A program made the translations under genes and the position numbers. The notes below the pieces were generated by a model. That model worked only from the letters and a program-made list of their open reading frames with translations. It was not told where the DNA came from and did not search any database. From a virus, in the IMG/VR virus record IMGVR_UViG_3300023174_000078, positions 57,277 to 121,276 of that record: 64,000 nucleotides of DNA; one strand, written 5' to 3'. Of the stretch, positions 5,203-51,238 are shown in pieces (position 1 is the stretch's first letter; the number at the start of each line of letters is the position of its first letter).

Positions 5203-5445
5203 ATGAACTCACTGGTTAACTCTGTACCAGCTTTTAATGGTTGCTTTACGCATCAGATAAAAAGATTTGTATCCTACGGCGTGTTTACGCCTGTAATTCT
5301 AGCTTCATCCGCTGCTGTAACTGGCGATGTTTTAGGAGAGCTGTATAGCAAACTGTTTCAGCTCAGCCCTTTTTTCTCTGAATCACAATTGCAACTGAGA
5401 CATGTTATTAAAACCAAACTGTATGACGACACTGAATACGGGTGA
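5203..5445 (+). CDS. Small protein, probable diverged tetrapeptide-repeat family member
   Basis: Weak 4-residue periodicity (FVSY GVFT PVIL); first gene of the mini-gene cluster. Confidence 0.45.
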   Translation: MNSLVNSVPAFNGCFTHQIKRFVSYGVFTPVILASSAAVTGDVLGELYSKLFQLSPFFSESQLQLRHVIKTKLYDDTEYG

Positions 5446-5665
5446 ACGTCGCGAATTTGCTGCGTATCACCTACTGTACAAGCGGTCTGTATTTAATACA
5501 CAAGACGACGTGATTGACCTGTTTGATATTTTATCAAACTTCACGGATTGCGTGCATGGTGATGTATGGGATGTGATTTTAGTTAATCTACGAACGCCAA
5601 TATATCAAGCGGCAGGTAGCCATATAGCAAATTATGCGTCCGCAATCCTGAATGAGACAATATGA
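5402..5665 (+). CDS. Small protein, diverged tetrapeptide-repeat family (start probably at MTTLN)
   Basis: SVFN...CVHG DVWD VILV; ends LNETI like the array units. Confidence 0.6.
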   Translation: MLLKPNCMTTLNTGERREFAAYHLLYKRSVFNTQDDVIDLFDILSNFTDCVHGDVWDVILVNLRTPIYQAAGSHIANYASAILNETI

Positions 5666-5874
5666 GAAGAAAAAAAGATTACTTAGGTGATTATGTCGCT
5701 GATAGTGTAAACGATATATGTTGGAGTTGTGTGATACACATTATCACGGATATCATTTTTATGGCGACATCTCGTCCTGTTTACAAGGAAATTTATGGAT
5801 TTATAGATACACATGTTTCTGATTCTGTAGGCAATATAGTTCATATAAAAATAAATAATGAATGCGATTTATAA
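5662..5874 (+). CDS. Small protein, diverged tetrapeptide-repeat family
   Basis: YVAD SVND ICWS CVIH...HVSD SVGN IVHI KINNE. Confidence 0.65.
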   Translation: MRRKKDYLGDYVADSVNDICWSCVIHIITDIIFMATSRPVYKEIYGFIDTHVSDSVGNIVHIKINNECDL

Positions 5875-5904
5875 ATCTGTTAACGCTACGTATAGCCGAA
5901 AAAC

Positions 5905-6108
5905 ATGAAAACACTTTCTGATACTGTCTGGTCTCAAACTTGGTATTGTATTCACATTTCTATATGGACCTCGATAGGCCGCGCGACTAATGCTGATACG
6001 GCGGTTTCTACGCACGAATTTGTTTCGGACGCAATTTTTGAACCTGTAGCTAAAGCTACTGGCACGCGTTACGTCGATTCAACAATATATGAAATTGTTA
6101 AATCCTAA
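5905..6108 (+). CDS. Small protein, diverged tetrapeptide-repeat family
   Basis: MKTLSD TVWS QTWY CIHI SIWT SIGR...FVSD AIFE PVAK. Confidence 0.7.
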   Translation: MKTLSDTVWSQTWYCIHISIWTSIGRATNADTAVSTHEFVSDAIFEPVAKATGTRYVDSTIYEIVKS

Positions 6109-6130
6109 AAAACAAATGAGTACACACTAA

Positions 6131-6364
6131 ATGATGAATGATAAAACTCTTTATAACTCTATAACGACGCTAGTGTCTGTTTTTGCGCTCGATGGTTTAG
6201 AAGATCATGTTTTTAGCGTTACTCGCGGCTCCTGCGCAGCTAGGTCTGTGTGGATAACTGTTATGCATCAAGTCTTTGACATTACGCACAGGGCTACAGC
6301 CGATCCTAATTATGGTATTACCTCACGTCTTGCCAAAGTATTAAATAAAAAAATAAATGAGTAA
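6131..6364 (+). CDS. Small protein, diverged tetrapeptide-repeat family
   Basis: LYN SITT...SVWI TVMH QVFD; ends NKKINE with an aataaatgagtaa junction. Confidence 0.65.
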   Translation: MMNDKTLYNSITTLVSVFALDGLEDHVFSVTRGSCAARSVWITVMHQVFDITHRATADPNYGITSRLAKVLNKKINE

Positions 6365-6563
6365 TATTTACTACTCTATTTGGACATCTATTTGCGATAA
6401 TGTCTGTGGTGGCGTGGAGCGCAATGGGCTTGACACTTTATGGGATACAGCGCGCTATTCCGTAGAGGATACTGTTTGGTTTGCTATCAGCGCCAATATC
6501 TTCGGGATTATGCCCGACGCTGTAGAAAAAACTATTTGTAACCATCTTTATGCTAAAACTTGA
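6357..6563 (+). CDS. Small protein, diverged tetrapeptide-repeat family
   Basis: SIWT SICD NVCG GVER...TARY SVED TVWF AISA. Confidence 0.7.
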   Translation: MSNIYYSIWTSICDNVCGGVERNGLDTLWDTARYSVEDTVWFAISANIFGIMPDAVEKTICNHLYAKT

Positions 6564-6978
6564 AAAATCCGTTTCACACTTCGCGCGTATTATGGTTCAG
6601 CCCAATATAATTGACCCCGTTAAACATAATGCGTGGCAGGCTATTAGTGAGCAAGATTGGGAAGACGTATGGCTAATTCCTGCCGAATCGATATATACCG
6701 CCGCACGTAATAACGTGAGTGAGCTGGTCAGGAGTTTTTTGTTACACACACACACAAACCTTATTAAAATGAGTACCGATAATGAATTAAGACGGGCTGT
6801 TAACGAGATTAGCGACGCGCTAGTTTGGAAAAATTTAAGGAGCGCAATATGGTCTCATATGGAAGCTGATAGATGGTGGAGTACCCGTTTTGCGCTGAGT
6901 GACAGCATGACGGCTAAAAATGTATGTACCGCTAACTTCTTCGTTAATTCTTACATGAATCAACAAAAATATGGATAA
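6550..6978 (+). CDS. Double-length tetrapeptide-repeat family protein (two units fused; second ATG at 6769)
   Basis: SVSH..PVKH NAWQ AISE..DVWL, then MSTDNELRR AVNE..LVWK..AIWS. Confidence 0.6.
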   Translation: MLKLEKSVSHFARIMVQPNIIDPVKHNAWQAISEQDWEDVWLIPAESIYTAARNNVSELVRSFLLHTHTNLIKMSTDNELRRAVNEISDALVWKNLRSAIWSHMEADRWWSTRFALSDSMTAKNVCTANFFVNSYMNQQKYG

Positions 6979-7183
6979 TGTTTTATACAGAACTATTTTT
7001 CACAATGTGTGGCGTCCTGTACACCGCTGTGTGTTGTACCGTATACAAGATAGCACAGCAAACGCTTTAATAGGCGATGTGTTTGAATCTGGATGGGTTG
7101 CTATCAGAGATGCTGCTTACATACCTGTGGAGGATATGCTTCATCCGTACGTTTCTTTAAAATTTAATTCAATATGCGTGTAG
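6971..7183 (+). CDS. Small protein, diverged tetrapeptide-repeat family
   Basis: TIFH NVWR PVHR CVLY RIQD...AIRD AAYI PVED. Confidence 0.65.
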   Translation: MDNVLYRTIFHNVWRPVHRCVLYRIQDSTANALIGDVFESGWVAIRDAAYIPVEDMLHPYVSLKFNSICV

Positions 7184-7296
7184 ACAATTCACCACACCCG
7201 GCAGTCATTCGCTGTATTGACGATAAACATAACGCTTCAAATTAGACACCGCCATCGCGGTCGTTTCCCTGCGGTGAAATCCAAATTCTGCACAAC

Positions 7297-7500
7297 ATGA
7301 CAATTCACGATTCTAGCGATACCCAGGTATACTACGCGATCAATAAGTACATCTGGTTCGATATCCGGGCTGCTATAAAGGATTTTATTTGTTACGACGC
7401 GTATCGCTACGTTGAGAACGAAATTTATGATAAAGCAGACAGTGTTACATACTATTCTGTATGCGAATATGTGGAGCTGAGCCTCAAAATTTATAAATGA
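7297..7500 (+). CDS. Small protein, diverged tetrapeptide-repeat family
   Basis: QVYY AINK YIWF DIRA AIKD FICY...SVCE YVEL. Confidence 0.65.
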   Translation: MTIHDSSDTQVYYAINKYIWFDIRAAIKDFICYDAYRYVENEIYDKADSVTYYSVCEYVELSLKIYK

Positions 7501-7706
7501 ATAACCCGACACTTTTTGTTTCAGTCTATAACCCTCCCGGATTAATTCCCCTAGTTGGGCAGTTGCACTTAAGGTGTGCGATGAACTATAGAGACGAAGT
7601 ATGGACGGCTATGTCGAATAACGCCGCCCATATTAGCAAGCGTTTAGGCCATGCGTCTTATCATACTGATCGCAAGATAGCTGAGGATTTACACCAGTAC
7701 ACATAG
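7497..7706 (+). CDS. Small protein, possible diverged family member
   Basis: LFV SVYN...EVWT AMSN; similar size and overlapping start. Confidence 0.5.
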   Translation: MNNPTLFVSVYNPPGLIPLVGQLHLRCAMNYRDEVWTAMSNNAAHISKRLGHASYHTDRKIAEDLHQYT

Positions 7707-7736: not shown

Positions 7737-8087
7737 ATGAGCACAAATAAAGAAATCAAAGTCACACCAAGAGTCTGGAAAGCTATGCGCTACGCTGGAG
7801 ATGGCTATGACACATACGGTAAACAAAGAGATGGTAAAAATTATTGCGATCTCGAGACCGCAGTGACTCTAGAGACTGAATTACAGGCAGCTACAAAGGA
7901 ATTAAAACTTCTGCAAAAGCAGAACGATAAACTACTAAAAGCGCTGCGGGCCTTTACGCGATTCGGCAGCAGTCCCGGAGCAGGTGGCGGCGGAACTTTA
8001 GATTTATACACGCAAGGACAACGTGTAACCGAAAAGAATGTTCGTGACATAGCAAGGAAAGCACTAAAAGCATATGGCCCTAAATGA
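7737..8087 (+). CDS. Hypothetical coiled-coil protein
   Basis: 116-aa ORF with a heptad-like segment. Confidence 0.6.
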   Translation: MSTNKEIKVTPRVWKAMRYAGDGYDTYGKQRDGKNYCDLETAVTLETELQAATKELKLLQKQNDKLLKALRAFTRFGSSPGAGGGGTLDLYTQGQRVTEKNVRDIARKALKAYGPK

Positions 8088-8331
8088 AGAATTCATAAAG
8101 GTAGAAACAGCATATCACACACCTCCTGGAGGTCAGCAGGTTGGTCCAGTTTCCGCAGGGGTTAAAGTGACACATGAGTTCGGTGGTATATCTGTGACAT
8201 GCGATTTAGGTAGGTCACAGAAACAGAATAAAGATATGGCTTTAGGAGCTATTGAATACTTATTAGTAGAAGCAGGATACACAGACGCCGTGTTATTTAA
8301 AAAAGATGAACATAATTCAAAAAGCAGCTGA
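8074..8331 (+). CDS. Stand-alone peptide chain release factor (GGQ) domain protein
   Basis: PGGQQV..VSAGVKVTH..GISVTC..GRSQKQNKDMAL matches the class I RF catalytic domain consensus. Confidence 0.8.
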   Translation: MALNEEFIKVETAYHTPPGGQQVGPVSAGVKVTHEFGGISVTCDLGRSQKQNKDMALGAIEYLLVEAGYTDAVLFKKDEHNSKSS

Positions 8332-8776
8332 CTACGCGTTATTGGCGCATAATGGTCAGAAACGTAAAAATGGTAAGCCGTACTTCACACATGTTGAAGC
8401 TGTAGCGAACCTTGTGAACGATAACTGGTCCAGATTGATTCCGCCCACAGCGCAAGATAACTGGAACGATTATAAAGACCATGTGGTGGCTGCGGCATAT
8501 CTACATGATGTAATCGAAGATTGCGGTGTGACTAAAGATATGCTTATTGCATGCAGCTTCTCTGTGATGACTGTCGAAATTGTCGAAGCATTATCCAAGA
8601 AGCCCGGCGAGAATTACTTTGATTTCATTATGCGCATTCACGATAGTGGTGCGTTCCGTCCAGGTATAGTTGCAGTTAAACTTTGCGATCTAGAACACAA
8701 TATGAGTGACTTGGATAACGGTTCACTCAAGGATAAATACAGGCTAGCGCATTATATACTTAATTATTTTAACTGA
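8306..8776 (+). CDS. HD-domain (p)ppGpp hydrolase-like protein (SpoT/Mesh1 type)
   Basis: AH.GQ.RK.G.PY..H, AAYLHDVIED, VKLCD..HN. Confidence 0.85.
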   Translation: MNIIQKAADYALLAHNGQKRKNGKPYFTHVEAVANLVNDNWSRLIPPTAQDNWNDYKDHVVAAAYLHDVIEDCGVTKDMLIACSFSVMTVEIVEALSKKPGENYFDFIMRIHDSGAFRPGIVAVKLCDLEHNMSDLDNGSLKDKYRLAHYILNYFN

Positions 8777-9135: not shown

Positions 9136-9536
9136 TTATGACTCCAAATCGATTTAATGAGATTGTAGTAAATCGCGCCAAAGAGCGTGTGAAAGCTAAA
9201 GTAGCTAAATTTGAAGCTACTATTGCCAAAGCATTTAAGGATTTACATCCTTGCCTGGCGACAAGTAATTATTATAATAGATGGTCCTCAGGACCACAGA
9301 CGAAGCATGCTGTAGCTGTTATGCGCCTTCTATGTGGCGTGAAAGAAGAAAAGAATAAACCCGTTGGGTATCCCGAGGCCTTATGGCGGGACGAAGAAAA
9401 AGCAGTTGAAGAAGAATTGCTTGCTACTATGGATGAAATGGCTAAGGCTTTATTAGCCCCGCAAGATGACGAACCCTCCCCCATTGCAAAATATGACCCC
9501 ACTCCAGACGACTCCTTTATCCCCAGTGGCGTCTAA
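9129..9536 (+). CDS. Hypothetical protein
   Basis: ORF in operon. Confidence 0.6.
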   Translation: MVIMTPNRFNEIVVNRAKERVKAKVAKFEATIAKAFKDLHPCLATSNYYNRWSSGPQTKHAVAVMRLLCGVKEEKNKPVGYPEALWRDEEKAVEEELLATMDEMAKALLAPQDDEPSPIAKYDPTPDDSFIPSGV

Positions 9537-9792
9537 CGAGAAATTTATCAGCTGTGATTGCCATAGCGAATTTATACGGTTGAATTACGACAAAGAAATC
9601 GAATGCTTTGATGTATCCATTTGGACTTTACAGGCAAGTAGTAAACCACACTGGCGCACAAAGCTTCGTTGGTTATGGCGTATTCTGACCAATGACTCAC
9701 CGTATGGTGATCAGGTTATTATTAATGAAGATAAGGCCAAAGAACTGGCTGATTATATACTAGAAAAGTTAGCGAGCAAAAGCGGGGCTTAA
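9466..9792 (+). CDS. Hypothetical phage protein (CxCxxE motif); start uncertain
   Basis: CDCHSE motif; W..KLR..W. Confidence 0.55.
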   Translation: MTNPPPLQNMTPLQTTPLSPVASNEKFISCDCHSEFIRLNYDKEIECFDVSIWTLQASSKPHWRTKLRWLWRILTNDSPYGDQVIINEDKAKELADYILEKLASKSGA

Positions 9793-9825
9793 CGCCCTAG
9801 TAGTACTAGTGCCAAATTCACAGCG

Positions 9826-10335
9826 ATGAAAACAACTGAAGAAATTCAAATTTTGGAATGCCGCACGTGTAAGCATAAGCCTATATTCGTACCTTTGCCT
9901 GCTGCGGAATTTCCTATTTCGTTTGTTTCGTTATGTGGGTGCAATTATGGTTCTCTGCATCATGGTATTCATTCTACGATGCGTGTTAATGCTGATATTA
10001 TAAAGAATAATTCCGTAATACGTAAAGCCTCTTTAACAGCCGCAATCAAAAAGTGGAATCGGCGCGTTGCGACGTATATCAAATCCAAACAAACACGATA
10101 TGACCCTGATTATGTGACCTGTCGTTACTGCAAACGAGACGGTTTGCTGCGCGGTCGTCGTCCTTACATTTCTAGATGGAAACCTTCTTCTAAATTTTTG
10201 TTATACGAAAAAGTTGAACAACCGCCTTCACCTGCTGGATCTTCCAACTGGCCAACGTTTCAGACACACAAATTCAAGATACACAGTTGTTTGTCACGAA
10301 AGAACATCGTATCAGAGAAAATTATAACAGACTAA
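9826..10335 (+). CDS. Zn-finger-like hypothetical protein
   Basis: CRTC, CGC, AIKKWN, CRYC motifs. Confidence 0.55.
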   Translation: MKTTEEIQILECRTCKHKPIFVPLPAAEFPISFVSLCGCNYGSLHHGIHSTMRVNADIIKNNSVIRKASLTAAIKKWNRRVATYIKSKQTRYDPDYVTCRYCKRDGLLRGRRPYISRWKPSSKFLLYEKVEQPPSPAGSSNWPTFQTHKFKIHSCLSRKNIVSEKIITD

Positions 10336-12081: not shown

Positions 12082-12464
12082 ATATCATTTTTTTAGATGA
12101 TGACTTAAATCGTTGGAAGAGTTTTCGTTCCAAGGTGCCGCAGGCTGTACATGTAGAGACAGCTGCGGCGTGCATTAAACTTATCAAAGACACACCTGTC
12201 ATTGATTGGTTATTTCTAGATCATGATTTAGGCGGTGAAGCTTATGTGAAATCTTATCGCGAAGATTGTGGTATGGAAGTTGTGCGTTATTTGTGTGCGG
12301 AAAATCGCAACCAAACTATACATAATATTGTTGTACATTCGCATAACGCCCCAGCCGCGCAGGAGATGTTTAATAAGTTACAAGATGCTGGCTATAAAAC
12401 GCAGCTATTGCCGTTTTATAGTTTAGTTGACGCAATATCTGTAAATCTTGATGCTACGACTTGA
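12078..12464 (+). CDS. Divergent receiver-like domain protein (cyclic-phosphate-processing REC type)
   Basis: IFLDDD..R, LDHDLG, VHSHN motifs. Confidence 0.7.
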   Translation: MNIIFLDDDLNRWKSFRSKVPQAVHVETAAACIKLIKDTPVIDWLFLDHDLGGEAYVKSYREDCGMEVVRYLCAENRNQTIHNIVVHSHNAPAAQEMFNKLQDAGYKTQLLPFYSLVDAISVNLDATT

Positions 12465-13126
12465 GCATGTTTGGGTCACCTTCATGTTACATCAAAAGTG
12501 CTAAACTTACTGCCTATCTATTAAATAAATTTAATATTACTAAAAGTGAAAACAATCAAGATATAGTTCTTCTGTCTTTATTCGCTAGCGTAAAATCCTT
12601 CAAACTTAACATGTTCTCTCGTTCCTTTACGGCCAAAGAAGTCGCCACAATGATCCTGAATGAAAATGATCCAAAAACAATGGATTATTTTTTTATGAAA
12701 TTACTAGATGTTCAATTAGAGAACACGCAGATTAATTATAGTGGTACTTTGACTGGTACTGTACGAAGTGCAAAGTCTAGAATTACTGAAGCTTTTGGTG
12801 TATTGAGTCGCATACGTAACTTTGCCCGTGGGCAAATCTATTTTGTTATGGATATTCATGAGCATCAGATTTTTCCAAAGTCTAGATCTTTCAGAATTTG
12901 CAGTCGCAGACTAATGCCAAGTAAGGTAATTAATCCTAATGCAGGGCAGAAGAAACAAATTACTTATGGTTCTGGTTATGTCTCGACTTACCTGGAGCCT
13001 AATGAGATTTTGATGTCGAAGCATCTCGTGCTTTACTGTCGAAATGCTTGGGAGCGTAAAGGAGAAGTTAAACCTTCGCGGGCAAACCAGGCTAAGCCTG
13101 TGGTAAATGTTGACGCAACAGCATAG
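12461..13126 (+). CDS. Hypothetical protein
   Basis: 221-aa ORF. Confidence 0.6.
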   Translation: MSMFGSPSCYIKSAKLTAYLLNKFNITKSENNQDIVLLSLFASVKSFKLNMFSRSFTAKEVATMILNENDPKTMDYFFMKLLDVQLENTQINYSGTLTGTVRSAKSRITEAFGVLSRIRNFARGQIYFVMDIHEHQIFPKSRSFRICSRRLMPSKVINPNAGQKKQITYGSGYVSTYLEPNEILMSKHLVLYCRNAWERKGEVKPSRANQAKPVVNVDATA

Positions 13127-13150
13127 GTACTTAGTGTTATATAATCATGT

Positions 13151-13417
13151 ATGGGTAAGTATATCAATCATACTCAAAATGGGCCGCTTCAGCAGAAACA
13201 CAAAGCGGCAGAATTGAATAAGGCAGGTGCAGAACTTCTGTTAGACACGCCTACAACGTGGGAAGAAGGACTGATCTGCGTGGTGAGTAATGGTATATTC
13301 GAAGCGGCGGCGTATGTCCAGGATGCCCGGGATCTCGAAGATTTCTCTGAGTTCGTGTGGGACACCAGGCCGCGTGTATGGCTCAAATGGGATAGGGCTA
13401 AAGAGTTCGCTAAATGA
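13151..13417 (+). CDS. Hypothetical phage protein
   Basis: MGKYIN, VVSNG.FEAAAY, DTRPR.W motifs. Confidence 0.65.
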   Translation: MGKYINHTQNGPLQQKHKAAELNKAGAELLLDTPTTWEEGLICVVSNGIFEAAAYVQDARDLEDFSEFVWDTRPRVWLKWDRAKEFAK

Positions 13418-13989
13418 ACATCTTCGCAATTTACAGATGCCCGGTCACGTCGGCCCGGCATCTTGTAGATTCCCATGTCGTGAAAATGGTATTGGAATCT
13501 GCGCAGATGCTAGCTAATTGCTTTACGCCAGAACAACTTGCTGGTGCTGACTGTCCCAGAACGAAGGCAGGCACAGTACGCAAATATTCATATTACAATC
13601 ATCCATGTAGTAAATGGGTGCGCGTGTCGCAAGAGAATATGCGCTGGTTATGTCGACATGCGCTGGCTATGGACGTTGAAAGAATTCAACGCTCAACAAT
13701 CAGAATACAAGAACAACGACAATTAAGAGACCGTGGCTTACCGTATAGTGAAGCGATAGCGAACAGCACACCTGTTCCGCATCACAGCATTTCTTTTATT
13801 AATTGGGTAGTCGCTAATTTTCCGCGCAGTCTAATACCTGAAGGACCTTTGACAGAATTTGCACAGGCTATGCCAGATGAATTCAAATGTGCAGATTCTG
13901 TTCAAGCCTACCGCAACCTTTATACGATAGGTAAAAAACATTTACATATATGGACGCGCAACAAACCTGACTGGATTAACCTATGCTAG
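13414..13989 (+). CDS. Pyrimidine-dimer DNA glycosylase / endonuclease V-like protein
   Basis: MNIF...D.HVVKMVLESAQML...NHPC..W...QAMPD...AYR. Confidence 0.8.
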   Translation: MNIFAIYRCPVTSARHLVDSHVVKMVLESAQMLANCFTPEQLAGADCPRTKAGTVRKYSYYNHPCSKWVRVSQENMRWLCRHALAMDVERIQRSTIRIQEQRQLRDRGLPYSEAIANSTPVPHHSISFINWVVANFPRSLIPEGPLTEFAQAMPDEFKCADSVQAYRNLYTIGKKHLHIWTRNKPDWINLC

Positions 13990-14028
13990 ACCTTAATGAT
14001 AGTTCACCCCTACTGCCCCGGCGTTTAA

Positions 14029-14241
14029 ATGAAACGATCACTTAATAATTCTGTCTGGCATTCTGTCCGTAATTCTGTCAATGAGTCTGTCCGTAATTCT
14101 GTCAGAAATTCTGCCCTGTATTCTGTCTGGGATTCTGTCTATAATTCTGTCTGGGATTCTGTCCGTAATTCTGTCAGTGGTTCTGTCTATAATTCTGTGT
14201 GGCATTCTGTCAGTAATAAAATAAATGAAACGATCACTTAA
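14029..14241 (+). CDS. SVxx-repeat mini-protein 1 (14 repeats)
   Basis: MKRSLNN-(SVxx)14-KINETIT. Confidence 0.75.
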   Translation: MKRSLNNSVWHSVRNSVNESVRNSVRNSALYSVWDSVYNSVWDSVRNSVSGSVYNSVWHSVSNKINETIT

Positions 14242-14389
14242 TAATTCTGTCTGGCATTCTGTCCGTGATTCTGTCAGTGATTCTGTCTATAATTCTGTCT
14301 GGGATTCTGTCCGTAATTCTGTCAGTGGTTCTGTCTATAATTCTGTGTGGCATTCTGTCAGTAATAAAATAAATGAAACGATCACTTAA
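14225..14389 (+). CDS. SVxx-repeat mini-protein 2 (10 repeats, 54 aa; absent from the ORF track)
   Basis: Manual translation MKRSLNNSVWHSVRDSVSDSVYNSVWDSVRNSVSGSVYNSVWHSVSNKINETIT. Confidence 0.75.
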   Translation: MKRSLNNSVWHSVRDSVSDSVYNSVWDSVRNSVSGSVYNSVWHSVSNKINETIT

Positions 14390-14561
14390 TAATTCTGTCT
14401 GGCATTCTGTCCGTGATTCTGTCAGTGATTCTGTCTGGGATTCTGTCTATAATTCTGTCTGGAATTCTGTCAGTGGTTCTGTCAGGGATTCTGTCTATAA
14501 TCCTGTCAATGAGTCTGTCAGAGATTCTGTCAGTAATAAAATAAATGAAACAAGCACTTAA
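14373..14561 (+). CDS. SVxx-repeat mini-protein 3 (12 repeats)
   Basis: Same architecture, 17-nt overlap with neighbours. Confidence 0.75.
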   Translation: MKRSLNNSVWHSVRDSVSDSVWDSVYNSVWNSVSGSVRDSVYNPVNESVRDSVSNKINETST

Positions 14562-14733
14562 TAATTCTGTCCATAGTTTTGTCAGTGATTCTGTCTTTAG
14601 TTCTGTCCGTAATTCTGTCAGAGATTTTGTCAGTAATTCTGTCCGGTATTCTGTCAGTGATTCTGTCTGGGATTCTGTCTTTAATTCTGTCAATAATTCT
14701 GTCAGTAATAAAATAAATGAAACGATCACTTAG
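14545..14733 (+). CDS. SVxx-repeat mini-protein 4 (12 repeats)
   Basis: Same architecture. Confidence 0.75.
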   Translation: MKQALNNSVHSFVSDSVFSSVRNSVRDFVSNSVRYSVSDSVWDSVFNSVNNSVSNKINETIT

Positions 14734-14905
14734 TAGTTCTGTCCGTAGTTTTGTCAGTAATTCTGTCAGTAATTCTGTCAGTGGTTCTGTCTGGGATTCT
14801 GTCTGGCATTCTGTCCGGTATTCTGTCAGTGATTCTGTCTGGGATTCTGTCTTTAATTCTGTCAATGAGTCTGTCCGTAATAAAATAAATGAAACAATCA
14901 CTTAA
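14717..14905 (+). CDS. SVxx-repeat mini-protein 5 (12 repeats)
   Basis: Same architecture. Confidence 0.75.
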   Translation: MKRSLSSSVRSFVSNSVSNSVSGSVWDSVWHSVRYSVSDSVWDSVFNSVNESVRNKINETIT

Positions 14906-15089
14906 TAATTCTGTCAGTGGTTCTGTCTGGGATTCTGTCAGTAATTCTGTCAGTAATTCTGTCAATAATTCTGTCAGTGATTCTGTCAGTGGTTCTGTCT
15001 GGGATTCTGTCGGTGATTCTATCTGGGATTCTGTCTATGATTCTGTCCGTAATTCTGTCAGTAATAAAATAAATGAAACAATTACTTAA
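14889..15089 (+). CDS. SVxx-repeat mini-protein 6 (13 repeats)
   Basis: Same architecture. Confidence 0.75.
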   Translation: MKQSLNNSVSGSVWDSVSNSVSNSVNNSVSDSVSGSVWDSVGDSIWDSVYDSVRNSVSNKINETIT

Positions 15090-15309
15090 TAATTCTGTCG
15101 ATGATTCTGTCTGGGATTCTGTCAGTAATTCTGTCGACGATTCTGTCTGGGATTCTGTCTGGGATTCTGTCTTTAGTTCTGTCTGGAATTCTGTCTGGGA
15201 TTCTGTCCGTAATTCTGTCAGTGGTTCTGTCTATAATTCTGTGTGGCATTCTGTCCGTGATTCTGTCAGTAATTCTGTCCGTAATAAAATAAATGAAACA
15301 ATCACTTAA
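15073..15309 (+). CDS. SVxx-repeat mini-protein 7 (16 repeats)
   Basis: Same architecture. Confidence 0.75.
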   Translation: MKQLLNNSVDDSVWDSVSNSVDDSVWDSVWDSVFSSVWNSVWDSVRNSVSGSVYNSVWHSVRDSVSNSVRNKINETIT

Positions 15310-15541
15310 TAATTCTGTCAGCAATTCTGTCTGGAATTCTGTCCGTAATTCTGTCAGTGGTTCTGTCTATAATTCTATCAGTGATTCTGTCCGGTATCCT
15401 GTCAGTAATTCTATCAGTGATTCTGTCCGGTATCCTGTCAGTAATTCTGTCAATGATTCTGTCTGGTATTCTGTCTGGGATTCTGTCCGTAGTTTTGTCA
15501 GTAGTTTTGTCAGTAATAAAATAAATGAAACAATCATTTAG
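15293..15541 (+). CDS. SVxx-repeat mini-protein 8 (17 repeats)
   Basis: Same architecture; internal 36-bp duplication (SISD SVRY PVSN x2). Confidence 0.75.
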   Translation: MKQSLNNSVSNSVWNSVRNSVSGSVYNSISDSVRYPVSNSISDSVRYPVSNSVNDSVWYSVWDSVRSFVSSFVSNKINETII

Positions 15542-15773
15542 TGATTCTGTCTGGGATTCTGTCAATAATTCCGTCCGTGATTCTGTCCGTAATTCTGTCC
15601 GTGGTTCTGCATATAATTATGTCGGTGATTCTGTCTGGCATTCTGTCTGGCATTCTGTCCGTGATTCTGTCCGTAGTTTTGTCTGGGATTCTGTCGGTGG
15701 TTTTGTCTGGGATCCTGTCAGTGATTCTGTCAATGAGTCTGTCCGTAATAAAATAAATGAAACAATCACTTAA
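15525..15773 (+). CDS. SVxx-repeat mini-protein 9 (17 repeats)
   Basis: Same architecture. Confidence 0.75.
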   Translation: MKQSFSDSVWDSVNNSVRDSVRNSVRGSAYNYVGDSVWHSVWHSVRDSVRSFVWDSVGGFVWDPVSDSVNESVRNKINETIT

Positions 15774-16017
15774 TAATTCTGTCAGTGGTTCTGTCTGGGA
15801 TTCTGTCAGTAATTCTGTCAGTAATTCTGTCAATAATTCTGTCAGTGATTCTGTCAGTGGTTCTGTCTGGGATTCTGTCTGTAATTCTGTCTGGGATTCT
15901 GTCTGGAATTTTGTCTATAATTCTGTCTGGAATTCTGTCAGTGGTTCTGTCAGGGATTCTGTCTGGCATTCTGTCTGGGCTTCTGTCAGTAATAAAATAA
16001 ATGAAACAATCACTTAA
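15757..16017 (+). CDS. SVxx-repeat mini-protein 10 (18 repeats)
   Basis: Same architecture. Confidence 0.75.
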   Translation: MKQSLNNSVSGSVWDSVSNSVSNSVNNSVSDSVSGSVWDSVCNSVWDSVWNFVYNSVWNSVSGSVRDSVWHSVWASVSNKINETIT

Positions 16018-16150
16018 TAATTCTGTCCATAGTTTTGTCAGAGATTCTGTCAGAGATTCTGTCTGGGATTCTGTCTGTCATTCTGTCTATAATTCTGTCC
16101 GTAATAAAATAAATGAAACTACACGATTACAAATTAGAACCTCAAAATGA
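16001..16150 (+). CDS. SVxx-repeat mini-protein 11 (7 repeats, 49 aa; absent from the ORF track)
   Basis: Manual translation MKQSLNNSVHSFVRDSVRDSVWDSVCHSVYNSVRNKINETTRLQIRTSK. Confidence 0.7.
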   Translation: MKQSLNNSVHSFVRDSVRDSVWDSVCHSVYNSVRNKINETTRLQIRTSK

Positions 16151-16541
16151 AACATTAGCTGTACTACGTAAACATGGTTTCAATTTGTCGCGCATGATTG
16201 CCTACAGCAAATCTACATACTTATCAATGCATCCGGAGCATCAAGTAGTGTTCAATGCCAATATTTTTACTCCGCAAGGTAAAGCTTGGTGGGGTGACTT
16301 GGATCTAACGAAAGATTCAGAAAATCTACAGCTTGCAGCTGCCGATATCGGTTCCACTTTATACGTGCTACGTGAATCGGATGGTCGCTTTGGCAATGAG
16401 CAGCGTACTGTGTCAGAATTAGAAAAATTAGCCGTCAAGAAATTTGAAGTTAAGTCAAAACAAAAAAAATCAATTCAAACATGTCTACAATCTTTAGCAT
16501 CCAAGGTAACACAATTTTTCTCCGCGACCCGGAGGCGATGA
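16113..16541 (+). CDS. Hypothetical phage protein, coupled to the array
   Basis: ATG sits in the same AATAAAATAAATGAAAC junction; SKSTY, FNANI, WWGDLDL, YVLRESDGRF motifs. Confidence 0.75.
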   Translation: MKLHDYKLEPQNETLAVLRKHGFNLSRMIAYSKSTYLSMHPEHQVVFNANIFTPQGKAWWGDLDLTKDSENLQLAAADIGSTLYVLRESDGRFGNEQRTVSELEKLAVKKFEVKSKQKKSIQTCLQSLASKVTQFFSATRRR

Positions 16542-17581
16542 ATTTCCACGATAAGCTTCCACCGGAAGTTTACGCGATTAAAGAGCACCCTATCACTGAG
16601 GAGTTGTTTTTAGATAAGATTGATTGTTTTAATATACCGCACAAGAGATACGGTAATAATGACAGGTACGCCCAACGTATCTTGAACAGCTTCAAGCTAC
16701 GCAATCAAGCGACCGGTGTTCTCTTGTGTGGGGAGAAGGGGTCCGGTAAGTCGCTACTTGCCAAAACTCTAGCCAATATCGCGCAAGCAGAGGGGTTGCC
16801 AGTTATCGTGGTTAACACACCACGCACTGGTGACGCTTTCTTCCAGCTTATTCAGCGGATTGAGCAGCCCGCTATTATTCTCTTTGATGAGTTCGAGAAG
16901 GTGTACGACTCAGACAAACAGAAAGAAGTTCTGACGCTGCTTGACGGCATCTATCCGTCCAATAAATTGTATGTCTTCACGGTCAACGATAAGTGGAAGC
17001 TGGATGTGAACATGCGCAACCGCCCCGGACGTATTTTCTATTCCATTGACTACAAAGGCATCGAAGAAAAGTTTATTCGTGAGTACTGCGAAGACAATTT
17101 GAATGATAAGTCGCAGGTCGACCATATCGTTCGTATCAACACACTGTTCAGTGCGTTTAATTTTGATATGCTGCAGGCTTTGGTTGAGGAAATGAATCGT
17201 TATAATGAAGATCCATTTGAGGCGATTCAGTTGCTGAATATCAAACCCGAGTACGAAGATGCCACAACCTTCACTACGTTTATTTCCGTCGATGGTACGC
17301 CTGATTCGCATATCACATGTGACCGGGACTTTAATGGTAAGCCTTTGGGCGACCGTGTGAAAATCTATTACCATAAGTATAGGCGTCTGGATATTTCCAA
17401 GGAACACTGTGATAACGAAGCCGACTGGCTGTCCGCTGAGTTTGTTCCAACGGATTTGGTTTCCGTCAGTAAGGACGGTAAAACTTTCTTGTTTAAGAAT
17501 AGCAAAGGCGAATCTGTTACGCTGCAAGCTAAAAAGAGTGATACCGCATTCGATTACCGCACTTTCGCTTACGCGAGCTAG
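16481..17581 (+). CDS. AAA+ ATPase
   Basis: Walker A GEKGSGKS, Walker B ILFDEFEK, LLDG, RPGR arginine finger. Confidence 0.9.
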   Translation: MSTIFSIQGNTIFLRDPEAMNFHDKLPPEVYAIKEHPITEELFLDKIDCFNIPHKRYGNNDRYAQRILNSFKLRNQATGVLLCGEKGSGKSLLAKTLANIAQAEGLPVIVVNTPRTGDAFFQLIQRIEQPAIILFDEFEKVYDSDKQKEVLTLLDGIYPSNKLYVFTVNDKWKLDVNMRNRPGRIFYSIDYKGIEEKFIREYCEDNLNDKSQVDHIVRINTLFSAFNFDMLQALVEEMNRYNEDPFEAIQLLNIKPEYEDATTFTTFISVDGTPDSHITCDRDFNGKPLGDRVKIYYHKYRRLDISKEHCDNEADWLSAEFVPTDLVSVSKDGKTFLFKNSKGESVTLQAKKSDTAFDYRTFAYAS

Positions 17582-17628
17582 TGTGCATTAAAAACAAATC
17601 AAACAAATTAAACAAAAGTCATACAATC

Positions 17629-18666
17629 ATGGACGCGAAACAGCAAAAAGAAAAGATCTCCGAACTCACTCCTGAGCAAAAGGCTAAGATGCCAGAATAT
17701 GTTAAGAAGTGGATTGCTATCGGCAACGACACTTCCCGGTTGAATTATGATCGTACTGTCGACATCATTCATGCGGTTCAGAAGCACATCCTGAAGAAAG
17801 AACCTACTCCGGTTTTGATCTTTGATAACCCCATGGAGGCCTGGGTAGCGTGTAACTATGCCGCACACGGTCACAAGGTTAATGAACTCAAGAACTGTGT
17901 GGAGGAGTTCTTCAGTGGAAAGAAACCCAAGTGGAAACTTGGTCAGTATGTTTCACCCTATCTCAATGGGTCATTCGCAGCACCAACGTTCGCCTTCTAC
18001 GACTTTTTCAAGTTCGAGTTGGGCGTTTCGTTTGACACTACCGGTACGCCAGTCGCAGCTGCGCAAGACAACAGCGCGCTTAGCGTGGATGAACTGTATG
18101 AGATCTGGAAGAGCACCACAGAGCTTGGACTGATCTATCCAATTCACGACGTCCAAGGTGCAGCACAGGATATGTGTATCGTGTCTCAAAAACCATCGCG
18201 GGTAAAAGTTAATGAAGCCGGTGTCGTACACTGCGATGGCGCTGTTGCCATTGAGTACGAGGGGCATGGCGATATCAAGATTTATGCGCTCAATGGTGTG
18301 ACTGTTCCTGATTGGTTGGCTTTGACGCCAGCCCAGAACATCCCCGTCGAGCGGATACACGAAATTAAAAATGCAGACATTAAAGCCGAGTTTGTTCGCA
18401 AGATCGGTGTTGAGCGTTTGCTTGACATGGGAAGCAAAGTGGACTCTTATGAGGCTCATTCTGATGAGTGGTGGCACAAGTCGCAATACGAGCTTTGGGA
18501 TATGCACAACCTGTTTCCTAATGTTGAGTACGCCCCACACCTCAAGATGCTGAATCAGACGACCAAAATCTGGCACGTTGAGGCTGTATCTCCTAGTTGC
18601 AGAACAATCGAAGATGCGTTGAAAGACCGGTATGGTCGCAATGTTGACATCATTGAAATCGCCTAA
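17629..18666 (+). CDS. DUF6745-like protein (ATG at 17629 preferred over GTG at 17581)
   Basis: LTPEQ...Y..KW..IG N-terminus; FYDFF; G.VHCDGAVAIEY...YALNGVTVP; I.NAD..AE..RKIG. Confidence 0.7.
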   Translation: MDAKQQKEKISELTPEQKAKMPEYVKKWIAIGNDTSRLNYDRTVDIIHAVQKHILKKEPTPVLIFDNPMEAWVACNYAAHGHKVNELKNCVEEFFSGKKPKWKLGQYVSPYLNGSFAAPTFAFYDFFKFELGVSFDTTGTPVAAAQDNSALSVDELYEIWKSTTELGLIYPIHDVQGAAQDMCIVSQKPSRVKVNEAGVVHCDGAVAIEYEGHGDIKIYALNGVTVPDWLALTPAQNIPVERIHEIKNADIKAEFVRKIGVERLLDMGSKVDSYEAHSDEWWHKSQYELWDMHNLFPNVEYAPHLKMLNQTTKIWHVEAVSPSCRTIEDALKDRYGRNVDIIEIA

Positions 18667-18746: not shown

Positions 18747-19115
18747 ATGTCAAAATCCAAAGCAACCAAGTCCAAAGTCAATTCCAACGCCGCGCGCGCA
18801 ATCCTTCACGGCGAGTGCGGTATCGTACAATCCCCCATCCCCGAGGATGCCACCGCCGTCAAGATCAAGGACAACTGCTTGATCCTGGCCGACTCCGAAA
18901 CCACGGGTAACCACCACGTTCTCGACGTCTTGCCGGGCGTTGAAGTCCTGGAGAAGGAAGGGAAGCGTTTTATGCGCAATTCCGTCCCCGCCCAGGTCCG
19001 CTGCTTACACACGGACCGGCACGATGCCCTCGTCGTACCCCCCGGTGAATGGGAGTTCATCATCGCTCAGGAGTTCGACTACTTCGAAATGAGCAAGCGC
19101 AATGTCCGCGACTAA
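18747..19115 (+). CDS. His-motif beta-rich phage protein (ETTGNHH); probable partner of the DUF6745-like gene
   Basis: HGE, LADSETTGNHHVL, H..H..L.VPPG.W...Q.E.D.....R.VRD; visibly GC-rich codons. Confidence 0.7.
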   Translation: MSKSKATKSKVNSNAARAILHGECGIVQSPIPEDATAVKIKDNCLILADSETTGNHHVLDVLPGVEVLEKEGKRFMRNSVPAQVRCLHTDRHDALVVPPGEWEFIIAQEFDYFEMSKRNVRD

Positions 19116-20880: not shown

Positions 20881-20955
20881 GCCTTCGTAGCTCAGTGGTA
20901 GAGCGGCTACTTTGTAAGTAGCGGGTCGGGGGTTCGAATCCCTCCGCAGGCTCCA
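20881..20955 (+). tRNA. tRNA-Thr(UGU)
   Basis: GCTAC-TT-TGT-AA-GTAGC anticodon arm, GGTTCGAATCC T-arm, CCA end. Confidence 0.92.
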
Positions 20956-20956
20956 T

Positions 20957-21031
20957 GCTCCGGTAGCTCAATGGTAGAGCAGTACCCTTTTAAGGTATTT
21001 GTTGCAGGTTCGAGCCCTTCCCGGAGTACCA
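20957..21031 (+). tRNA. tRNA-Lys(UUU)
   Basis: GTACC-CT-TTT-AA-GGTAT anticodon arm, T-loop TTCGAGC, CCA end. Confidence 0.88.
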
Positions 21032-21074
21032 TTTTTCATTGGCGTATCGCCAAGAACAAAGTAGAGTAACATAT

Positions 21075-21149
21075 TCCCGGGTAGCTCAGCGGTAGAGCGA
21101 ACGGCTGTTAACCGTTAAGTCGTAGGTTCAAGCCCTACCCTGGGAGCCA
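21075..21149 (+). tRNA. tRNA-Asn(GUU)
   Basis: AACGG-CT-GTT-AA-CCGTT anticodon arm; TCCCGGG/CCTGGGA acceptor; G73, CCA. Confidence 0.92.
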
Positions 21150-49315: not shown

Positions 49316-49396
49316 GCGGGTATGCGCAGAGAGGCCGAATGCACCTGTGTTACATACAGGAAATCACCGTTGGTTCGAATCCAACTACCCGTACCA
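49316..49396 (+). tRNA. tRNA with UAC anticodon (Val), atypical body
   Basis: GCGGGTA/TACCCGT acceptor plus ACCA; CCTGT-GT-TAC-AT-ACAGG; GTTGG TTCGAAT CCAAC. Confidence 0.7.
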
Positions 49397-49411
49397 TTTT
49401 AGAATTACAAC

Positions 49412-49651
49412 ATGAGAAAACCCAAGTTGACATACATACATGTCAATCAGCATAAGATTCGCGCTAATAAAACTAAGGGCGCGAATGAACCTGTTATTAC
49501 CGTCAAGCAAGGTAGAAAAAATACATATTGCTACAGAGTAAAAATTCACGGACCTAGTGAAGTTGTTTACTCTGGAAACGATACTACTTTACTGGCTTGC
49601 GGTGCTAGAGTAGCTATCGTAACAGAAAGTGCAGTTGAGATTTTAGAGTAA
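49412..49651 (+). CDS. Conserved small phage protein
   Basis: IHVNQH.I..N...G..EPVITVK...I.GPS.VVY...CGARV. Confidence 0.7.
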   Translation: MRKPKLTYIHVNQHKIRANKTKGANEPVITVKQGRKNTYCYRVKIHGPSEVVYSGNDTTLLACGARVAIVTESAVEILE

Positions 49652-49699
49652 GTTTTTATTTAGCTTATACGGCGTACACAATCTTTTTGTAAAAACAAT

Positions 49700-50017
49700 A
49701 TGAGTAAAAAAACACAGACTGATATTAGCGAAATGGTGGCGGTCAATCGCGTAGGTTGGGAGGCTATCAGACATAAAGATGGTTGGTGGGTTGGTACTGA
49801 CAAAGGTGTAACTTGCTACGGCGATCACCAAATTGCCCGGATGGCCCTAACTATGATTTGGCAACGTGATGGTGGTGGTCCGCTAAAGTTTAAGATTGAA
49901 AAATATACACATGTAGCCGATAAGCAAGCAACGCCTGATTACGTGCCAAAATATGGCGCTGTTGAAGCTTTACGTAATTACGAGCGACGGAAGACACGTA
50001 CGCGCGTTAAATCATGA
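49700..50017 (+). CDS. Hypothetical protein
   Basis: ORF. Confidence 0.6.
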   Translation: MSKKTQTDISEMVAVNRVGWEAIRHKDGWWVGTDKGVTCYGDHQIARMALTMIWQRDGGGPLKFKIEKYTHVADKQATPDYVPKYGAVEALRNYERRKTRTRVKS

Positions 50018-50220
50018 TACATGAATTTAATAATCCTATTCTGGCGCATACGCCTCTCGGCGTAGGGTATGTTTGGTATGTGCGAGATACAGGCATGCAT
50101 GAAAATGATCAGTTCGCTGTTATTTTAAAAGATGGTGGTAAGATTGTGCACTTATTAAGTCATCAAATCCGAATTCATTCTAATAATACGTTTGACATTA
50201 CCAAAGACGAGTCTAATTGA
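50014..50220 (+). CDS. Small phage protein
   Basis: TPLG.G...N.TF motif; ATGA overlap. Confidence 0.6.
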   Translation: MIHEFNNPILAHTPLGVGYVWYVRDTGMHENDQFAVILKDGGKIVHLLSHQIRIHSNNTFDITKDESN

Positions 50221-50226
50221 TAATAT

Positions 50227-50314
50227 GGGAAGGTGGTAGAGCGGTTTATTGCACTGGTCTTGAAAACCGGAGTGCTGCAAGGCACCGTGGGTTCGAATCC
50301 CACCCTTCCCGCCA
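50227..50314 (+). tRNA. tRNA-Ser(UGA)
   Basis: CTGGT-CT-TGA-AA-ACCGG, long variable arm, G73, CCA. Confidence 0.93.
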
Positions 50315-50323
50315 ATTTTAAAT

Positions 50324-50399
50324 CACAGGGTGGACAAGTGGTTAAGTCGCTTGGCTCATAACCAAGAGATCGAGGGTTCGACTCCCTCCCCTGTAACCA
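50324..50399 (+). tRNA. tRNA-Met(CAU), initiator-like (C1:A72 mismatch)
   Basis: CTTGG-CT-CAT-AA-CCAAG; CACAGGG/CCCTGTA; ACCA. Confidence 0.88.
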
Positions 50400-50407
50400 A
50401 TTCAAGT

Positions 50408-50830
50408 ATGAGCGAAAAAGAAACACATCCACCATATCCCCCTTATGAAATTCTTCCGATAGATCCGGAAAAAAATCCGCCCGAAACAATTGAAGAATTA
50501 GAAATTCTTATAGATAAGCTGCAGGGTAAGTCTGCAAGTATTAAGCAGCAATTAGAAGTGATTGCGATTCGCGAGAAGCAGGGGCTAGCAGTAGACTATT
50601 CCAGAGTAAAACGCGCGATGTTTGCCAGGACGCAGACTAACAGATCGATTGCAGCTTTACAACGTATTGTTAAAAACAAGCGCCAGCAAGCAGCGCTTAA
50701 GTCAGGAAGCCCGTTCGAGAAATTCTTTTTCGAGGTTGCAAAGGCAAAACTTTCGGCGGATATGCTGACTGCCCTTATGGACGATGCGTTCCTTAAAATG
50801 CGAGAAGCCGAAAGATCAAACAGCGATTAA
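50408..50830 (+). CDS. Hypothetical coiled-coil protein (true start after the tRNA)
   Basis: ATG at 50408; the ORF-track start at 50330 lies inside tRNA-Met. Confidence 0.65.
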   Translation: MSEKETHPPYPPYEILPIDPEKNPPETIEELEILIDKLQGKSASIKQQLEVIAIREKQGLAVDYSRVKRAMFARTQTNRSIAALQRIVKNKRQQAALKSGSPFEKFFFEVAKAKLSADMLTALMDDAFLKMREAERSNSD

Positions 50831-50947
50831 TTATTCTTTTGTGCTATATAATTATGTTGACAAAACTTATTAATCAGATATTTTTATAAGTCTGAAAGTT
50901 TTACGTTGACAAGTTGTTTAATTAATTAACTATTAAGAAATATAACC

Positions 50948-51238
50948 ATGCACACAGAACTCATCGCACAATCCCTTGTGGCACGGCTTCATGCCGATGG
51001 CCTGAAAATTCAACAAGTCGAGCAAAGTGAAGTCGACGGTAACCTGGAAATTACCATCACTACACAACAACTCAATGGCTTAAAATCGCTAACGGTCCGT
51101 ATGCAAGAGGTTGAGGTTTCTCATCCGCTGACTGCAGACTTTGGTTTACTAGGTCCTGATGAGGGCTTTGTAGATCATGAAGACCACAGCCCAGATCAAC
51201 TTAGAGAGCTGGCGCTGGCGGCAGACGAAGAAATGTGA
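50948..51238 (+). CDS. Hypothetical acidic protein
   Basis: ORF after an AT-rich promoter region containing TTGACA boxes. Confidence 0.6.
   Translation: MHTELIAQSLVARLHADGLKIQQVEQSEVDGNLEITITTQQLNGLKSLTVRMQEVEVSHPLTADFGLLGPDEGFVDHEDHSPDQLRELALAADEEM

Follow-up and report, generated by a model that had tools for sequence, protein, structure and literature searches.

We describe here an array of eleven chained small genes at positions 14029-16150 of a 64,000-nt stretch of viral DNA (the window), whose first letter is position 1 for the coordinates given below. The window belongs to the IMG/VR record IMGVR_UViG_3300023174_000078, a single virus contig of 121,276 bp with 42% G+C and a CheckV completeness estimate of 67%. 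Each gene encodes a short cap, a run of Ser-Val-x-x (S-V-x-x) tetrads written in 12-nt modules and a short tail. We propose that the array arose by tandem amplification and comprises eleven genuine small genes, that its tetrad run is the free-standing form of the tract that separates the domains of DUF6745-type phage proteins, and that its products act with a tract-less DUF6745-like protein encoded 1.5 kb downstream. We give this explanation as a whole a probability of roughly 0.6.

The array consists of eleven open reading frames (ORFs) of 49-86 aa on the plus strand. Units 1 to 11 lie at 14029-14241 (70 aa, 14 modules), 14225-14389 (54 aa, 10 modules), 14373-14561 (62 aa, 12 modules), 14545-14733 (62 aa, 12 modules), 14717-14905 (62 aa, 12 modules), 14889-15089 (66 aa, 13 modules), 15073-15309 (78 aa, 16 modules), 15293-15541 (82 aa, 17 modules), 15525-15773 (82 aa, 17 modules), 15757-16017 (86 aa, 18 modules) and 16001-16150 (49 aa, 7 modules). 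Scripted cutting divided every unit into a head of 21 nt, n modules of 12 nt and 7 remaining nt, and so reproduced exactly the eleven units, the series of n and the total of 148 modules that had been described in a first reading of the letters alone (the original prediction). Tandem Repeats Finder reported a 12-nt period with 159 copies over 14046-15993. Unit length is 28 + 12n nt, always 1 mod 3 and 4 mod 12, and the reading frame therefore advances by one base per unit. Heads follow the pattern MK(R/Q)(S/A/L)(L/F)(N/S)(N/S/D), and tails read NKINET(I/S)T, with the stop 17 nt inside the next unit (a 17-nt ATG...TAA overlap in which the next ATG sits within AATAAAATAAATGAAAC). Unit 11 is an exception: it ends in ...KINETTRLQIRTSK, with its stop at 16150, and overlaps the next gene by 38 nt. 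The unit-junction copy also precedes unit 1 and provides the start (ATG 16113) of the 142-aa gene that follows the array. In the frame of each following unit a TAA lies immediately 5' of the ATG, which makes the units separate ORFs. No two of them are identical and none has a stop in the S-V frame, as had been predicted; their products have masses of 5.7-9.4 kDa and isoelectric points from 4.05 to 10.0.

At the DNA level the modules are strikingly uniform in one half and variable in the other. An exact S-V dipeptide is present in 129 of the 148 modules, and 125 of these 129 are spelled TCTGTC, in agreement with the near-invariance first noted. This hexamer occurs 141 times in the genome, 126 of them in the two 2-kb bins that contain the array, and elsewhere in the genome no Val codon is used less often than GTC (14%). 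The other hexamer comes in 33 types, led by the same words as in the small vocabulary originally described (TGGGAT, AGTAAT, CGTAAT, TATAAT, AGTGGT, TGGCAT and AGTGAT are commonest), and Arg-Asp modules have three different spellings. Module positions 1-6 are near-invariant and position 12 is T in 144 of 148 modules.

The units are very probably translated genes of an S-V tract family, judging from comparison with other phages. The closest comparison is relative L119, a 101-kb IMG/VR contig whose ATPase is 78% identical to that of the window and which carries, in the same place, an array of 11 units, of lengths other than those in the window, with its own caps (MTLKDSV... and ...IKDLIKSHDT) and an 11-nt overlap (ATGACACTTAA). 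All 11 L119 units are 1 mod 3 and 10 are 4 mod 12, the eleventh having a 6-nt in-frame deletion, which is the only indel off the 12-nt register in the 22 units of both phages. The S-V frame alone is free of stops in 22 of 22 units. In L119 each of the other five frames has stops in all 11 units; in the window this holds for both other forward frames, and on the reverse strand two frames of unit 4 and one of unit 5 lack stops. Under independent base frequencies, 4.85 (window) and 21.25 (L119) stops are expected at codon 3 and none is observed; a stricter test on distinct module types gives P(0) = 0.20 and 0.076, respectively. Among module types that are single-base neighbours, the window has 63 nonsynonymous and 5 synonymous pairs, for an expected synonymous share of 0.228 (p = 0.0013).

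The spelling of S-V is specific to each lineage: L119 uses TCTGTT (118/124), L414 TCAGTA (215/236), L384 TCTGTA (198/205) and L412 TCAGTT (57/73). Since each lineage spells S-V with a near-uniform hexamer of its own, the conserved entity is the peptide and not the DNA word. The original prediction of selected small protein genes thus gains from a frame kept across diverged phages and from S-V kept under differing codons; the frequent stops and frame-breaking indels that a neutral repeat would accumulate in related phages are not seen in L119, with no stop in the S-V frame and a single in-frame 6-nt indel. We consider it very improbable that the array is a non-coding 12-bp minisatellite with a role at the DNA level, for example as a protein-binding array, or with none, and that its open frames are accidental. 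The core hexamer is indeed near-invariant even at synonymous sites, and the +1 frame is also open over the repeat body in the window. However, that frame gains extra stops in L119, the DNA core varies by lineage while S-V is constant, each unit comes complete with ATG, cap and stop, and the same tract is found inside hundreds of long proteins. In addition, an older and eroded cluster of related ORFs in the window, described below, still has its frames open.

The exact advance of one base at each junction could also mean that programmed +1 frameshifting yields a single long repeat protein, or a few of them, from the units. As the stop directly precedes the ATG in the next unit's frame (TAA in the window; TAG or TGA in L119), such a shift would be possible only inside the overlap, and reading of the 17-nt (window) and 11-nt (L119) overlaps revealed no known slippery site. 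The caps are, moreover, conserved as starts and ends, so that fusion by frameshifting appears extremely unlikely. We favor separate translation of the units: they would be co-transcribed, and probably translated serially by termination-reinitiation at the 17-nt ATG...TAA overlaps from A-rich leaders that have no Shine-Dalgarno sequence. A Shine-Dalgarno-like motif precedes only 11 of the 151 long ORFs of this genome, whose leaders are A/T-rich, and unit starts of this kind therefore look normal here. A promoter scan found CTGTCA-16 nt-TAAAAT at six junctions (14515-15754), ending 2 nt before the ATG. It was rejected as evidence because the scan total of 11 was below the shuffle mean of 16.0, and the matches are probably a by-product of the repeat.

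The identity of the tract was missed in the first reading. Three units tested gave no family in Pfam or PHROGs. A word-based search retrieved 27 proteins, 65-145 aa long, that contain x-D-S-V repeats, some of them short and free-standing and many ending in a conserved ...LVPSFDGxxWRLH domain. A profile built from all 22 units (11 each from the window and L119) was then searched against 1.84 billion cluster representatives, with 3357 matches at E <= 1e-3, 473 at E <= 1e-10 and 24 at E <= 1e-30, the best being proteins of 400-570 aa. When ten top matches were scanned, five had DUF6745 above the cut-off after the tract, four had the short ...SFDGxxWRLH C-domain and one had neither. The usual build of the tract proteins is an N-module (LTxEQ...KW..IGL), (x-x-S-V)n and DUF6745. 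The S-V repeat, as judged by these profile matches, is thus the inter-domain tract of DUF6745-type phage proteins. In a second architecture (P0001, P0002, P0009, P0072, P0074 and others) the tract is followed by a domain of roughly 60 aa, ...LW..GLVPSFDGxxWRLH.G, and P0001, P0009, P0072 and P0074 gave no Pfam family.

The proteins most alike to the units are the DUF6745 tract proteins (PF20530; phrog_31813-type; P0028, P0030 and P0034), which score E 1e-47 to 1e-57 with the unit profile. They, too, are built from the x-x-S-V tetrad, with Ser and Val fixed and the other two residues variable, and share N- and C-modules with the window's DUF6745-like protein. In them the tract, at most about 50 tetrads long, makes up one part of a polypeptide of 400-570 aa, whereas in the window it stands alone in 11 genes, each with its own cap and tail, and the DUF6745 domain is not in the same polypeptide, as there are stops on both sides. 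In the ESM Atlas, proteins of 65-86 aa fill three viral clusters (score 0.91), and the nearest structure belongs to a 445-aa cluster of which 92% bear DUF6745.

The tract-less partner proposed here is encoded at 17629..18666 on the plus strand (345 aa from its ATG). In the numbering of a 361-aa form with a GTG start, its residues 196-350 align with the C-terminal part of P0028 (41% identity over 158 aa, E 5e-38), and residues 26-84 with the N-module of P0003 (36% identity over 59 aa, E 2e-7), with no tract between the two parts. It scores 19.3 bits against PF20530 (E 7e-4), under the 27-bit cut-off; P0028 itself scores 27.4 bits and close homologues of the window protein carry precomputed PF20530 assignments. 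Its AlphaFold2 model is confident (predicted local distance difference test, pLDDT, 92; predicted template modelling score 0.81), but neither Foldseek against the PDB (E <= 0.001; best 0.23) nor VIA-align (Z >= 5 among 48,161 chains; best 4.0) gave a match.

A tract-less gene next to the array, and a +1 shift at every junction, would also be expected if the units were remnants of a tract once internal to a DUF6745 protein, fragmented by frameshifts and heading to loss. This is highly improbable given the identical, designed-looking ATG...TAA overlap and the conserved head and tail at every junction. Other lineages, moreover, have 5-26 intact units with their own caps, and repeat-less DUF6745-like proteins form a large conserved subfamily (264 matches at E <= 1e-5, of about 283-354 aa among the matches listed).

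Arrays of this kind are not restricted to the window and L119. An IMG/VR scan with a degenerate DNA pattern for SVWDSVxxSVxxSV returned at least 119 loci, at least 117 of them with S-V ORFs. Among the matches listed, 211 S-V ORFs are complete (124 of up to 100 aa, 36 of 100-250 aa and 51 of more than 250 aa), and other contigs have arrays of 5-26 small S-V ORFs with heads and tails specific to the lineage. The largest of these comprise 26 ORFs (L414, caps MILGKSIKDKV...PKIKL) and 21 ORFs (L384, caps MNKINDSV...DYFKQK), followed by 12 (L475), 11 in two clusters (L467), 10 (L395), 8 (L412), 6 (L471) and 5 (L472). An earlier DNA pattern, TCTGTC spaced by 6, mostly retrieved (CTGT)n-type microsatellites, with true tract proteins in L007, L015 and L021. 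A search for relatives through the gene upstream of the array gave one close relative, L119, and 79 further loci without arrays; a distant phage locus reached through the same gene has a run of x-x-S-I tetrads (GDSIRDSIRYSIRY..., L260 3307-3390, minus strand). In L119, we also noted a twelfth ATG with the same head (MTLEA...) that opens a repeat-free 81-aa ORF after unit 11 (7858-8103) and, upstream of the ATPase, a tandem duplication of two consecutive ORFs with identical first 20 residues (MKKTQSQNKNMQSQNEEFHA, 9297-9975).

Looking for similar arrays and conserved neighbors, as the original prediction had proposed, led to arrays elsewhere with a DUF6745-like gene nearby. A profile of the repeat-less DUF6745-like protein matched 7 of 10 array-bearing contigs, in open frames of 316-363 aa, and the three misses are contigs of 20-27% completeness. 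In the five contigs where both were mapped, an array lies 0.45-0.7 kb downstream of the DUF6745-like gene on the same strand. Array and DUF6745-like gene are both present in L119, L287 and L288, the DUF6745-like gene after the ATPase, and neither was found at 156 loci around more distant ATPase homologues, where three weak matches to the profile are repeated matches to one short profile segment. Four array contigs have very close DUF6745-like homologues and two (G004 and G006) have distant ones. From this proximity, we regard it as an even chance that the units act with the DUF6745-like protein.

Alternatively, the mini-proteins might be real and act alone, as decoys, inhibitors or scaffolds, with the proximity to DUF6745 reflecting common descent or shared regulation. 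Consistent with this, the free-standing 65-86 aa forms fill whole viral clusters, most of the complete S-V ORFs counted above (124 of 211, among the matches listed) do not exceed 100 aa, and the tract is a portable module, since it is also fused to a quite different short C-domain. Against it stand the distance of at most 0.7 kb between an array and a repeat-less DUF6745-like gene in all five other lineages tested, and the joint presence or absence of the two among the ATPase loci. We consider independent action unlikely, and prefer a joint role with the DUF6745-like protein.

The array appears to evolve by gain and loss of modules and by exchange of blocks. Unit lengths in the window differ by whole modules only, and exact blocks are shared out of order: the first 123 nt of unit 6 recur unchanged in the non-adjacent unit 10, 94 nt are common to units 1 and 2, 69 nt to units 1, 2 and 7, and 64 nt to units 2 and 3. 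These observations support the recombination- or slippage-driven change originally suggested, a process that we infer from its products. Slippage, unequal exchange and gene conversion between 12-nt modules would be the simplest account; they would keep the S-V core uniform in DNA and at the same time reshuffle the two variable residues and the tract length.

Localized hypervariability in phage genes is also known from the targets of diversity-generating retroelements (DGRs), which the original prediction had set aside. No RVT_1 match at E <= 0.01 was present in the 121-kb record (67% complete), in a search whose controls matched in 3 of 14 genomes, and all four bases occur at the variable module positions, so that this variation does not come from a DGR. 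Unlike DGR systems, the record has no reverse transcriptase that could be found and no template repeat that could be seen, the changes in the modules are not adenine-specific, and length varies too. An in-gene tandem repeat whose copy number varies between isolates has been described for VR2 in bbp36 of Bordetella phage BMP-1 (as cited in PMC2884959); by that description, its 24-bp unit lies inside one gene, in contrast to the 12-nt modules in separate genes of the window.

What the units look like and do can be sketched from models and analogy. AlphaFold2 without an alignment folded unit 10 into three helices; a two-copy complex prediction scored 0.01 against a mark of 0.42 and allowed no verdict. 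By reasoning from the period of four residues, four slowly winding stripes would run along a helix, one each of Val, of the aromatic or basic residue, of Asp/Asn and of Ser. The variable residues would then line one helix face and could make up a variable binding surface, and the set of units might work with the DUF6745-like protein in phage-host conflict. Here the nearest studied analogue, which is not a homologue, is gp54 of mycobacteriophage Tweety. As described in PMC2884959, an A-A-x-x motif is repeated 48 times in gp54, the third base of each codon being constant across the repeats and the first and second bases varying, and the counterparts Che8 gp57 and PMC gp51 have 26 and 15 copies of their tetrapeptides. 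Escape mutants against the Phrann gp29/gp30 prophage defense are reported to map to gene 54 and to alter its repeat number (PMC9262239). Units and gp54, so described, share a tetrapeptide run in which two residues are fixed and two vary and in which third codon positions are constant; position 12 of the window modules is an example of the latter. They differ in that gp54 repeats A-A-x-x and not S-V-x-x and is a single gene with N- and C-domains, whereas the window units have no flanking domains. On this analogy, counter-defense is a tentative suggestion that we hold to be possible but rather doubtful.

A more specific proposal would be that slippage and exchange make new helix surfaces, and that the mini-proteins are swappable specificity subunits on a constant DUF6745-like protein, perhaps with its His-motif neighbor and the AAA+ ATPase, so that a single phage would deploy many variants of the complex against variable host targets such as defense proteins; as it stands, this is a speculative and improbable refinement. 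A relation to the glycofibrils of freshwater TLP-4 fibrils, which have tetrapeptide cores, was set aside: those cores are described as needing dihydroxyproline in each repeat (10.1101/2025.09.30.679562), and S-V-x-x contains no Pro.

Several points weigh against the proposed explanation. The case for coding is built on sequence, and the excess of nonsynonymous pairs is significant in the window only (57 nonsynonymous and 10 synonymous pairs in L119, p = 0.11) and could partly reflect DNA-level homogenization of third positions. The single-sequence model of unit 10 has low confidence (mean pLDDT 62). The link to DUF6745 comes from gene neighborhood, for which the counts are not independent because several array contigs are related to one another. 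Repeat-less DUF6745-like proteins of about 283-354 aa are common, and in the window the DUF6745-like gene comes after the array, with two other genes in between, a separation that also favors independent action of the units; in other lineages the array lies directly downstream of that gene. The functional analogy to gp54 is loose, because gp54 shows no sequence similarity to the DUF6745-like protein of the window (E 1.7) and has no Pfam match. Finally, most of the window is present in two public lake or freshwater metagenome runs, but the long flank contigs of both runs end at 14055 and restart at 16012, and no listed piece spans the array.

Unit number and order therefore rest on one assembly, and it is conceivable, though on balance unlikely, that the array is real while its exact unit number and order in the record are a product of short-read assembly. 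The breaks at 14055 and 16012, with only 90-251 nt pieces between them, would be expected in this case. So would the situation in two relatives, one with two units only, whose assembly may be collapsed (L288), and one whose contig breaks off within the array and differs in the penultimate unit (L287); in run X3, a related strain has one joint incompatible with the unit order of the window. On the other hand, the inner pieces match the window without any mismatch and some of them cross unit junctions (e.g., 14467-14584 and 14703-14837), and the mosaic blocks and strict 28 + 12n lengths are coherent. A near-identity search of 12400-18400 against GenBank phages matched nothing, nor did tblastn with unit 9 against the same phages, which is expected given the low-complexity filter.

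A second cluster in the window appears to be an older relative of the array. About ten small ORFs of 67-142 aa lie on the plus strand at 5203-7706. When the unit profile was run against the 451 ORFs of the genome, six of these (5662-5874, 5905-6108, 6357-6563, 6550-6978, 6971-7183 and 7297-7500, within 5402..7500, plus strand) matched with E 1.2e-6 to 3.3e-3 and nothing else in the genome did; shuffled ORFs gave no match in 10 rounds. Five of the ten cluster ORFs have a period-4 hydrophobic signal beyond that of any of 500 shuffles. The DNA repeat is eroded while open frames and the four-residue period are retained, as expected for proteins under selection. An APS-kinase gene (PF01583, 4674-5180) lies directly 5' of the cluster. 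In the relative, a 65% identical homologue (L286:2297-2809, minus strand) precedes a second young S-V array, which has 7 or more units bearing the caps typical of that relative, at the syntenic spot on the minus strand of L286. The APS-kinase neighbor also prompts the thought that the invariant Ser might be a modification site.

Around the array, gene order is partly conserved. The gene directly upstream (13414..13989, plus strand, 191 aa) matches phrog_624 'DNA binding protein' (E 1e-38) and is Pyr_excise-like (PF03013, 26.9 bits); a phrog_624 homologue is directly 5' of the array in L119 and L288 as well. Between this gene and unit 1 there is a possible bridging ORF of 20 aa (13983..14045, plus strand, MLDLNDSSPLLPRRLNETIT), whose ATG overlaps the upstream stop (ATGCTAG) and whose 3' end shows the usual 17-nt overlap with unit 1; this ORF may be a chance occurrence. 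Downstream, all on the plus strand, follow the 142-aa gene (16113..16541, no family), homologues of which precede the ATPase in L119 and L288, the AAA+ ATPase (16481..17581, phrog_2376) and, beyond the DUF6745-like gene, a 122-aa protein with an ETTGNHH motif (18747..19115), which is conserved beside the DUF6745-like gene in L119 and for which no family was found.

Farther away, an 85-aa RF-1/GGQ-only protein (PF00472, 42.4 bits, 8074-8331) overlaps a 156-aa HD_4 protein of the RelA/SpoT type (PF13328, 32.4 bits, 8306-8776), which suggests action on peptidyl-tRNA or on alarmone-type nucleotides. Phrann gp29/gp30, the target of Tweety gp54, appear to be named in papers on RelA-SpoT-homologue (alarmone synthetase) toxins, a thematic link only. 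The genome also has nine phage tRNA genes (Arg-TCT, two Met, Leu-TAA, Thr-TGT, Lys-TTT, Asn-GTT, Val-TAC and Ser-TGA), located at window positions 20881-21149 and 49316-50399 and at genome positions 49682-51145. Several of these tRNAs carry amino acids in which the units are rich (S, V, N, K, T and M), and their anticodons are not direct matches to the TCT and GTC codons.

Tetrapeptide tracts inside phage proteins were already known, DUF6745 is in Pfam and Tweety gp54 is the one studied case. Full-text literature searches for the tract motifs, for DUF6745 or PF20530 and for tandem small phage genes found no description of such arrays and no paper naming DUF6745 or PF20530, and among the papers that they returned on phage tetrapeptide repeats the Tweety papers alone bear on these arrays. 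New to the searched literature are the free-standing form, the arrays of 5-26 tiny genes with lineage-specific caps, and their position beside a tract-less DUF6745-like gene. Genes of this type pose an annotation problem, as they overlap, have no Shine-Dalgarno sites and are of low complexity: all nine unit proteins looked up by exact match were absent from a 15-billion-protein collection, in which the downstream 142-aa gene is present on three contigs. Should the units serve as variable partners of a single constant protein, they would represent a new standing repertoire of binding surfaces that needs neither reverse transcriptase nor invertase and, if the repertoire proposal is true, a route to combinatorial diversity in phages that involves neither a DGR nor a recombinase. 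The large DUF6745 family would, if the units are such partners, gain its first functional handle.

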